DNA from: Escherichia phage Turkey3
Direction: 5' to 3' (one strand)
Sequence record: PQ471515.1
DNA: 64,000 nucleotides
The translations under genes were made by a program, and so were the position numbers. The notes below the pieces were generated by a model, which was given only the letters and a program-made list of their open reading frames with translations, searched no databases and was not told the DNA's origin. Shown here one piece after another: positions 47,705 through 48,393 of this stretch. Position 1 is the stretch's first letter. Every line of letters starts with the position of its first letter.

Positions 47705-47732
47705 GGGACATAATACATCCTAGTGATATAAT
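47705..47732 (+). promoter_or_regulatory. extended -10 promoter (GGGACA-N16-TATAAT) driving non-coding locus
   Basis: GGGACA 47705-47710, 16-nt spacer, TAGTGATATAAT ending 47732. Confidence 0.55.
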
Positions 47733-47739
47733 GTATATT

Positions 47740-48253
47740 GTAAAATGACAACGGACATTGAAAAATGGATAATGAGAACCTACTTCTCTTGAAAATGTAA
47801 AGGATAGATGAGCTTTACCGTTGTAGCGAACAGCAAAAGAAACCTGTTAGAGTACTGGCAATCAAACAAACACGAGATAAGACCACGAATCACGGCGACA
47901 CGGCTGTATAAAGAACTCCAATAAGCACACAGAGAGTTCCTAGATAGATGTATAAGGTTCGCACCTTACGAATTTGCTAAGGGAGTTCAAGGATTGTGGA
48001 CGCGATTTTACAAGAAAGTTGCGTCCAAAATTTGAGAACAGGTACTACTTTGATCGAATAGAGTTTAGTACTGAGTGCTGTTGATGAAAAGACCAGCGAC
48101 CGTTGCATATGACTGCGATAGAGAGAAACCGAGCAACCCGCTTTCGCTCTCTAAATTTTGGTACAGGAAAGATCCGTCCAAAATTTGAGAAATTCGCAAT
48201 TCGATAATATCCGATGCCATCATCGTCAAGAGAGACTTAATTGTCTCTTTTTT
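47740..48253 (+). ncRNA. putative structured non-coding RNA (about 0.5 kb)
   Basis: Bounded by promoter and terminator; no ORF with RBS; locally GC-richer; several stem-loops and a duplicated 17-mer CGTCCAAAATTTGAGAA (48022-48038, 48174-48190). Confidence 0.35.
48231..48253 (+). terminator. intrinsic terminator
   Basis: Hairpin AGAGAC/GTCTCT (loop TTAATT) followed by TTTTTT. Confidence 0.7.
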
Positions 48254-48393
48254 ATTACCTTCATTCCCCTGCGGGGGGATGAAATAGTCCTCAACAAATC
48301 CCGTCAAGCTTTTAAAGTACATTATCATTTTCAGAAGGAACTAGTTTACGAAGTAAACGTAGTGACTTCTTGAGTTACGAGAGAACGAAGTGA

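Follow-up and report, generated by a model that had tools for sequence, protein, structure and literature searches.

Here we describe a gene for a large structured RNA in Escherichia phage Turkey3, found in a 64,000-nucleotide (nt) stretch of sequence record PQ471515.1 (the window, whose numbering is used throughout). The gene lies in the gap at 47705-48393 between an open reading frame (ORF) of 137 amino acids (aa) with a DUF7325 domain (47290-47703) and the ORF at 48394-48822. The RNA family is new, in that it matches no catalogued RNA family, and the gene is one of two or three paralogues in every Rak2-like jumbo phage. We consider it probable that this is a free-standing gene for a large structured RNA acting in trans by virtue of its fold, be it scaffold or ribozyme, on the model of GOLLD and ROOL. 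Its independence from neighbouring genes, its several copies and an invariant unpaired core framed by pseudoknots together argue for action in trans through the three-dimensional fold.

A previous reading of the same DNA, made from the sequence alone (hereafter the sequence-only reading), had seen here a promoter-to-terminator locus for an RNA other than a transfer RNA (tRNA). That the unit encodes such an RNA is borne out by conservation across genera in differing gene contexts, by strong covariation, by G-U pairs fitting the + strand and by the lack of a conserved ORF; its 3' limit does not hold, since the conserved unit runs beyond the terminator to at least 48308. The folding with homologous phages that this reading proposed gave strong covariation in a 35-sequence alignment, and its proposed covariance-model scan (Rfam 15) matched no known family, in agreement with a different RNA. 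A conserved protein-coding frame across homologous phages, which it named as counter-evidence, was not found among the 35 homologues. Likewise, ARAGORN finds no tRNA or transfer-messenger RNA (tmRNA) gene in the 64-kb window; for the locus itself, that reading had held the same. Its framing by the tk/e/nudE neighbourhood of T4 was mistaken, the window being 100% identical to Asteriusvirus jumbo phages.

Fold and conserved core of the RNA

The fold was deduced from an alignment (A1, MAFFT) of 35 distinct family members, on which RNAalifold placed 71 pairs, 41 of them with compensatory double changes. In the curated structure (13 helices and 66 pairs, two crossing) double changes occur in 41 of the 66 pairs, against 8-12 in slid controls, and canonical pairs fill 97.6% of cells, a share that drops to 34-42% on sliding the 3' partners by 1-3 columns. 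The score for covariation, 0.462, falls to 0.04-0.07 after sliding and is reached by none of 500 shuffles. Many positions alternate G-U with G-C or A-U, so that the fold belongs to the + strand RNA only; the minimum free energy (MFE) z-score of the window sequence against shuffles is -3.84 for the + strand and -2.91 for the - strand. In the divergent copies L063, L174 and L176 the helices are kept with new sequences. The RNA is thus predicted to be a multi-domain fold with at least three pseudoknots and at least 13 helices that covariation or conservation backs, built from the following parts.

47739-48253, + strand: structured RNA body of about 515 nt, from the putative start to the end of the terminator T-run (alignment, RNAalifold, pair counts, MFE z-score)
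47748-47824, + strand: 5' domain, with helix ACAACGG (47748-47754)/CCGTTGT (47818-47824); contains a GAAA-loop hairpin at 47756-47767
47780-47807, + strand: conserved hairpin inside the 5' domain, loop GAAAAUGUA
47812-47827, + strand: 3-base-pair (bp) pairing crossing the 5' helix, GCU (47812-47814)/AGC (47825-47827); 100% paired, double changes in two of three pairs
47830-47939, + strand: central domain, with helices 47830-47834/47903-47907 and 47844-47847/47892-47895 (the latter enclosing a variable insert) and hairpin 47913-47918/47934-47939
47898-47951, + strand: 3-bp tertiary pairing, ACA (47898-47900)/UGU (47949-47951)
47985-48040, + strand: optional arm 1, an imperfect long hairpin including GGACGC (47998-48003)/GCGTCC (48021-48026); the stem is in the MFE fold and its 3' strand is copy 1 of a 17-mer (48022-48038)
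48041-48072, + strand: hairpin whose loop AUCGAAU (48053-48059) pairs with AUUCGAU (48199-48205), a pseudoknot
48098-48146, + strand: near-invariant core GACCGUUGCAUAUGACUGCGAUAGAGAGAAACCGAGCAACCCGCUUUCG, about 50 nt (invariant alignment columns)
48114-48118/48194-48198, + strand: core helix UGCGA/UCGCA (helix 9), stacked with the loop pseudoknot 48053-48059/48199-48205
48121-48125/48141-48145, + strand: core hairpin stem GAGAG/CUUUC
48148-48191, + strand: optional arm 2, closed by UCUC (48148-48151)/GAGA (48187-48190) (helix 11); its 3' strand is copy 2 of the 17-mer (48175-48191)
48212-48225, + strand: small hairpin CGAUG/CAUCG (helix 12), in which U-G and C-G alternate, then conserved CGUCAAG

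The 5' helix was misregistered by MAFFT and hence checked sequence by sequence; the resulting duplexes comprise at least ten different complementary versions, that of L063 being CCGAUUGA/UCAAUCGG. For the short pairing that crosses it there are two readings, a pseudoknot and an alternative conformer. In the central domain, the hairpin 47913-47918/47934-47939 carries compensatory changes in all six pairs, L063 shows the versions GGUGC/GCACC and CCCCAC/GUGGGG, and the tertiary pairing occurs in three covarying states (AUG/CAU, AUA/UAU and ACA/UGU). The hairpin at 48041-48072, represented in L063 by CUGAUA/UAUCAG, and its loop pseudoknot are both 99% paired, with double changes in three and four pairs, respectively.

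Within the unpaired core a 30-nt segment is almost invariant. The core hairpin stem is replaced by compensatory GGAAG/CUUCC in the copies of RIT714 and L176, which indicates that 48121-48125 pairs with 48141-48145. Thus, of the two stem-loops proposed in the sequence-only reading, GGACGC/GCGTCC does pair, whereas AGAGAG/CTCTCT is not the pairing that evolution supports. CUCUC (48147-48151) pairs with GAGA (48187-48190) in the closing stem of arm 2, where double changes affect four of four pairs. The duplicated 17-mer of that reading is indeed present in exact copies, the second lying one base further along than had been given, and the repeat as a whole measures 30 nt, 90% identical (48009-48038 and 48162-48191). 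Arms 1 and 2 are homologous, and family members have two, one or none: arm 1 is present in some paralogues and missing from many, and arm 2 is shrunk to a short hairpin in other copies (e.g. UCUC-GUAA-GAGA in the paralogue 121Q_a). On the predicted fold, the 17-mer copies are the 3' strands of two optional peripheral arms created by internal duplication.

Promoter, terminator and downstream sequence

The signals around the RNA body, and the sequence elements that follow it, are these.

47705-47732, + strand: promoter, with GGGACA (47705-47710) as -35-like box, TG (47724-47725) as extended -10 and TATAAT (47727-47732) as -10
3933, 6501, 7243, 10853, 18510, 22037, 25170, 27426, 47705, 53427 and 59219, all + strand: copies of the family promoter, pattern GGGACA-N13-TGnTATAAT
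48231-48253, + strand: intrinsic-terminator-like hairpin and T-run, AGAGAC (48231-48236), TTAATT, GTCTCT (48243-48248) and six T's to 48253
48260-48283, + strand: GC hairpin TTCATTCCCC-TGC-GGGGGGATGAA, a single occurrence in the window, in all copies
48289-48308, + strand: conserved box CCTCAACAAATCCCGTCAAG, a single occurrence in the window
48344-48402, + strand (tentative): downstream module, hairpins GTTTAC/GTAAAC (48344-48358) and GTTAC (48374-48378)/GTAAC (48398-48402) around the ACGAAGTGA motif

The family promoter of the sequence-only reading, with 16 nt between GGGACA and TATAAT and its TG one base 5' of the -10 box, obtained 10 of 12 matches plus an extended -10 from a promoter scanner. 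The + strand of the window has 11 occurrences of the pattern for 0.7 expected, arguing for a real family promoter, and TGnTATAAT is conserved 5' of every member of the RNA family. The -35-like box is unlike TTGACA; in the copies of phages GAP32 and CBB the corresponding box is TGAAACG, described in both as a "divergent RpoD-like promoter" and in CBB enriched before DNA-synthesis genes (PMC5259590). This kinship suggests expression before the late genes. GGGACA could be the candidate binding site of a phage activator, by analogy with MotA, and transcription would start near 47739-47741.

The strong terminator that had been noted forms a 9-bp hairpin in the MFE fold, followed by the T-run, and its stem (helix 13 of the family alignment) covaries, with double changes in four of six pairs; it has no entry in the output of a simple terminator scanner. 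The expectation of no credible ORF was equally upheld. The longest frames in 47705-48393 are of 87 aa (- strand) and 71 aa (+ strand); across the 35 homologues no frame is conserved, the longest open frame shifting strand and frame, the indels not being multiples of three and the variable columns showing no 3-nt periodicity (0.68/0.69/0.71). Local GC enrichment was also seen, with a G+C content of 0.42 over 47800-48199 and of 0.27-0.35 in the surroundings; cumulative GC skew runs through the locus without an inflection.

Beyond the terminator, the GC hairpin contains U-G pairs compatible with the + strand alone. The AU-rich terminator hairpin is missing in 121Q_a and in L063, so that the true 3' end may not be constant or may be found farther downstream; in L063, where a U-run comes after the GC hairpin, that hairpin may act as the terminator. 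The box CCTCAACAAATCYCGTCA (48289-48308) is conserved in the phage paralogues and in a copy from an Escherichia coli island, and is diverged but recognisable in L176; L063 keeps the GC hairpin and has no recognisable box. An AT-rich stretch lies 3' of the box, with short, two-copy repeats. In the downstream module, which varies by copy type, ACGAAGTRAA occurs twice, 37 nt apart, and the hairpin around (A)ACGAAGUGA covaries in other copies; RNAalifold recovered the GC hairpin alone from this part, where the alignment register is poor. The motif (A/C)TC(N)CGTCAAG also occurs twice, on the 3' side of the last body hairpin (48221-48229, CATCGTCAAG) and in the post-terminator box (48300-48308, ATCCCGTCAAG), so that CGAUG (48212-48216) might alternatively pair with the box, or one factor might bind at both places.

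The start codon and first codons of the 142-aa ORF 48394-48822 overlap the conserved hairpin 48374-48378/48398-48402, and the start of this ORF aligns with non-coding sequence in other paralogues; either the start evolved from the tail of the RNA unit or the true start is further downstream. About 0.8 kb upstream of the RNA gene, an ORF of 203 aa (46283-46894) resembles HNH homing endonucleases. The annotations of 121Q and A4 list it as an HNH endonuclease, that of Turkey5 as hypothetical, and it has probably inserted as a selfish element with no relation to the RNA. Further downstream, at 49301-49321, a perfect 9-bp GC-rich hairpin (GGAGAGTCA...TGACTCTCC), with T-runs flanking it on both strands, has the look of a bidirectional terminator.

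Copies in jumbo phages and bacterial islands

Escherichia phages EC.P1, Ecwhy_1 and vB_Ec-M-J match the region at 100% identity and 121Q matches it at 97%, all four being Asteriusvirus (121Q/PBECO4-like, Rak2-like) jumbo phages of about 350 kb. In total, 71 jumbo-phage records from nine host genera carry the RNA gene, with identities of 66-100%. Phages of other genera and hosts have it at 66-71% DNA identity, namely the Mimasvirus members GAP32 and CBB; the Eneladusvirus members BF, fHe-Yen9-04 and the pEa_SNUABM phages; 7t3 and Munch; Klebsiella phages RaK2 and K64-1; and Erwinia phages Kaldavass and Hallingskeid. Family members range from about 440 to 550 nt. We found no homologue on plasmids, and no description of the family in the literature on jumbo-phage structured or non-coding RNAs.

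Paralogues were sought in IMG/VR with the invariant 16-mer 48131-48146. Genomes hold two or three copies, which share a strand and are separated by tens of kb: three in 121Q (at about 192.8, 247.5 and 326.6 kb) and two each in Serratia phage BF and two uncultured genomes. The paralogues share promoter type, conserved blocks and the post-terminator GC hairpin and box; flanking genes are unrelated among paralogues and genera. The window holds one copy only, of the "b" type, so that a multi-copy repeat inside the window was discarded, the other copies lying outside the 64 kb; in Ecwhy_1, a c-type copy lies about 85 kb from the window-type copy. One paralogue type is found between endonuclease VII and baseplate-hub genes in 121Q, 7t3, Munch, EJP2 and Hallingskeid. 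After c-type copies come genes of the opposite strand, with a bidirectional terminator closing the region, and in some b-type copies conserved downstream sequence leads into an ORF. Neighbours offered no functional clues: the window copy is flanked by DUF7325 and hypothetical proteins, and the island neighbours have no jumbo-phage homologue.

In deposited records the RNA region is mostly unannotated or overlaid with tiny ORFs (23-55 aa) on either strand, listed as small hypothetical proteins. Examples are L001 6416-6571 (121Q gene 516), L005 1414-1988, L006 1509-2002 (7t3_0445 to 0447) and L007 1703-1855 (fHe-Yen9-04 g347 and g348). These annotated ORFs are not conserved and are probably spurious.

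The full unit also occurs, at 75.6% identity, in 2 of 5426 complete E. coli genomes.

L088 10703-21597: integrative island of E. coli LR-29-1 (NZ_AP027515.1), about 10.7 kb, adjoining the signal recognition particle RNA gene ffs

In order, this island holds an IS3-disrupted integrase, a 318-aa protein with a weak Lin1244_N match, the RNA, three unknown genes, the candidate defence system PDC-M45 (DuOB, DUF488, mSLOG-DUF4326), a serine recombinase and a DUF2188 (PDC-S16) protein; the rest of the island shows no resemblance to jumbo phages. In Enterobacteriaceae RIT714 and in L176 the RNA copy directly follows a tyrosine integrase, and in the bacterial contig L067 it directly follows a 746-aa serine recombinase. 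Island units are complete, promoter included, and have no other genes in common with jumbo phages. Among species-representative bacterial genomes, a strict pattern gave 0 matches and a looser one about 100 chance matches and two true ones. The divergent copies L063 159-984 and L081 632-1402 lie in contigs that appear GC-richer by eye and are preceded by the same two small proteins, one with a DUF5983 C-terminal domain; L081 also has a gene with a ParE-like toxin domain. This setting looks like a third kind of mobile-element context.

The DNA after the island RNAs has features of its own. In L088 15500-16200, about 700 nt after the RNA are GC-richer, hold no ORF of at least 100 aa, contain ATCGATCG-rich palindromic repeats at about 15930-15975 and match nothing in phages or Rfam; a further non-coding element is one candidate, an att or ori region another. 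L067 2381-2584 (- strand) and L088 15500-15620 share a downstream module unlike that of the phage copies, with a perfect 14-bp hairpin (loop AAGCGGCGACAGCAAGCGAA) and another of 9 bp, whose two versions covary (AGUGCUCAC/GUGAGUACU vs AGUACUAAC/GUUAGUACU).

Kinship, possible roles and significance

GOLLD and ROOL, families catalogued in Rfam, are the nearest precedent for sizeable phage RNAs working by way of their fold, and reportedly both self-assemble, according to a cryo-electron microscopy preprint (10.1101/2024.12.08.627333). Like them, the present RNA exceeds 400 nt (theirs span 0.5-0.8 kb), has many helices and several pseudoknots, as judged by sequence comparison, and is a free-standing, self-contained gene on phage or prophage DNA. 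Yet the likeness is one of size and fold type: their covariance models give no match, no tRNA genes lie near the RNA gene, and its setting is that of enterobacterial jumbo phages with two or three paralogues per genome. More broadly, the 4227 models of Rfam 15 match nothing in the window, with chance-level hits only (E > 3) in 47300-48800 and none inside the element in seven other copies; tRNA, tmRNA and any known RNA family were set aside on the ARAGORN result and on negative Rfam scans at gathering and permissive thresholds. RNase P RNA and group I introns share with it a similar size, a multi-domain pseudoknotted fold and invariant joining regions suggestive of an active or binding site. 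An apparent motif likeness to RNase P RNA (CGACC-GUGCA...AGAGAGCAAACCGCC) failed in direct alignment to E. coli rnpB (M1 RNA): Smith-Waterman scores were 21 and 19 against a shuffle mean of 18, with 26 and 121 of 300 shuffles reaching the observed values, and RNase P covariance models, which reflect the conserved regions CR-I to CR-V and the P4 pseudoknot, gave no match at E <= 10 in 47300-48800. A group I intron was discarded, given no covariance-model match, an intergenic position with its own promoter rather than one inside a host gene, and several paralogues. Type III ToxI-like RNAs consist of tandem repeats of about 34-36 nt beside a toxin gene; here there are two 30-nt copies only, 153 nt apart, which form the 3' strands of arms and are missing in many copies, and this candidate too was rejected.

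The jumbo phage PA5oct, related to the Rak2-like group, expresses four ORF-free, highly transcribed RNAs of 236-619 nt, ncRNA001-004, seen by RNA sequencing; ncRNA002 has 451 nt and accounts for up to 5% of phage reads, and no known promoters were reported for the four (PMC7318152). Homology to ncRNA001 and ncRNA002, the two covered by the comparison, was dismissed, as the family profile (nhmmer) gave no match in their stretch (L061).

We propose that host RNA polymerase would transcribe the RNA from the family promoter in early or middle infection, most transcripts stopping at 48253 and some reading through into the GC hairpin and box. The folded RNA would then work in trans, its invariant unpaired core and pseudoknots serving as binding or catalytic site for a partner that would be present in every host and phage of the group; it may be a ribonucleoprotein scaffold, a ribozyme or a self-assembling RNA of the GOLLD/ROOL class. 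Several copies would raise the RNA dose, and enterobacterial integrative islands would have captured the same unit. Some points weigh against this proposal. Conservation runs about 60-170 nt past the terminator, through the GC hairpin, the box and the repeats around ACGAAGTGA, which a simple promoter-to-terminator RNA acting in trans does not need. Integrase adjacency in the islands could point to a role at the DNA level, as an origin or recognition site. Furthermore, the start, end and very expression of the RNA are putative, and the shuffle controls ignore phylogeny, a weakness of which the slid controls are free.

The main rival, which we regard as unlikely, is a replication origin that the transcript primes or opens, in the manner of ColE1 RNA II or of the R-loops at T4 oriF/oriG, the replisome loading on the downstream GC hairpin, box, AT-rich stretch and short repeats. 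Several origins would be expected in a 350-kb genome, as in T4, and several dispersed copies are found; islands would hold one in order to be replicated by an infecting jumbo phage, and the unit does follow the integrase directly in three island contexts and the 318-aa protein in that of E. coli. A promoter-driven RNA of up to about 0.5 kb lying 5' of conserved DNA is the arrangement of ColE1 and T4; the conserved DNA here has an AT-rich segment and two-copy short repeats, and the promoter, whose type is enriched ahead of DNA-synthesis genes in the CBB and GAP32 genomes, recalls the middle-mode promoters of oriF/oriG; in addition, one copy type sits at a strand-switch region by SbcCD, endonuclease VII and baseplate-hub genes. 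However, T4 origin R-loops need no specific RNA sequence, whereas here tertiary-level structure and a 50-nt core are conserved across genera, to a degree expected of ribozymes, and the conserved terminator interrupts the path from promoter to supposed origin, unlike what a primer RNA calls for. Neither an antisense regulator nor an initiator protein is evident, GC skew does not turn at the locus, the downstream module differs between copy types, and short two-copy repeats in AT-rich DNA often arise by chance. Slightly less likely again, in our view, is a phage-island interaction module, where the copy in a satellite or defence island, with its phage-type promoter, exploits or decoys an RNA-dependent process of the jumbo phage, the phage copies being targets or originals of the conflict. 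The complete unit directly 3' of an integrase beside ffs, in company with PDC-M45 and PDC-S16, the same arrangement in RIT714, L176 and L067 (there with a large serine recombinase), the divergent copies in contigs with DUF5983 and ParE-like genes, and the RNA structure kept in island copies all fit such a module. Yet it leaves the role of the RNA in the phage unexplained, the unit is rare in E. coli, no excision, satellite packaging or capsid-remodelling genes are recognisable, and adjacency to int may merely reflect a cargo hotspot.

A cis-acting leader, that is, a giant riboswitch or attenuator whose terminator gates read-through into the downstream module and gene, seems to us quite improbable. 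A large structured element followed by a terminator, with conserved sequence beyond it that reaches an ORF in some b-type copies, has the expected layout; but the downstream genes vary among paralogues and genera, the c-type neighbours are on the opposite strand behind a bidirectional terminator, and island copies have still other neighbours, so that a leader defined by a constant downstream gene was rejected. A protein-coding gene or decayed pseudogene missed by the ORF scan is almost certainly not the answer: some depositors did annotate hypothetical proteins over the region, but these differ in strand and place between genomes, and the frames, indels and periodicity of the alignment speak against coding. 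A trans-acting RNA thus remains our preferred reading. A bolder form of it, to which we give little credence, is that of a ribozyme or self-assembling RNA machine of unknown type at the core of Rak2-like infection, captured with its promoter by islands that parasitise or block phages; if so, it would be the first known large structured RNA by which a satellite or defence element mimics a helper phage.

Structured RNAs as large as ribozymes are rare, and every new class has led to new biochemistry, from RNase P and the group I and II introns to, recently, GOLLD, ROOL and OLE. The present family, so far overlooked or mis-annotated as tiny hypothetical proteins, is universal in a group of cultivable jumbo phages of E. 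coli, Klebsiella, Salmonella and Erwinia, some of them studied for phage therapy. It is directly testable, since both the phages and their hosts can be cultured and jumbo phages are amenable to antisense knock-down; there are several copies per genome, and the invariant core invites mutational testing. In practical terms, 71 genome annotations can be corrected and a covariance model submitted to Rfam. Finally, the adjacency to integrases in bacterial islands suggests an RNA-level layer in the conflict between phages and mobile elements.

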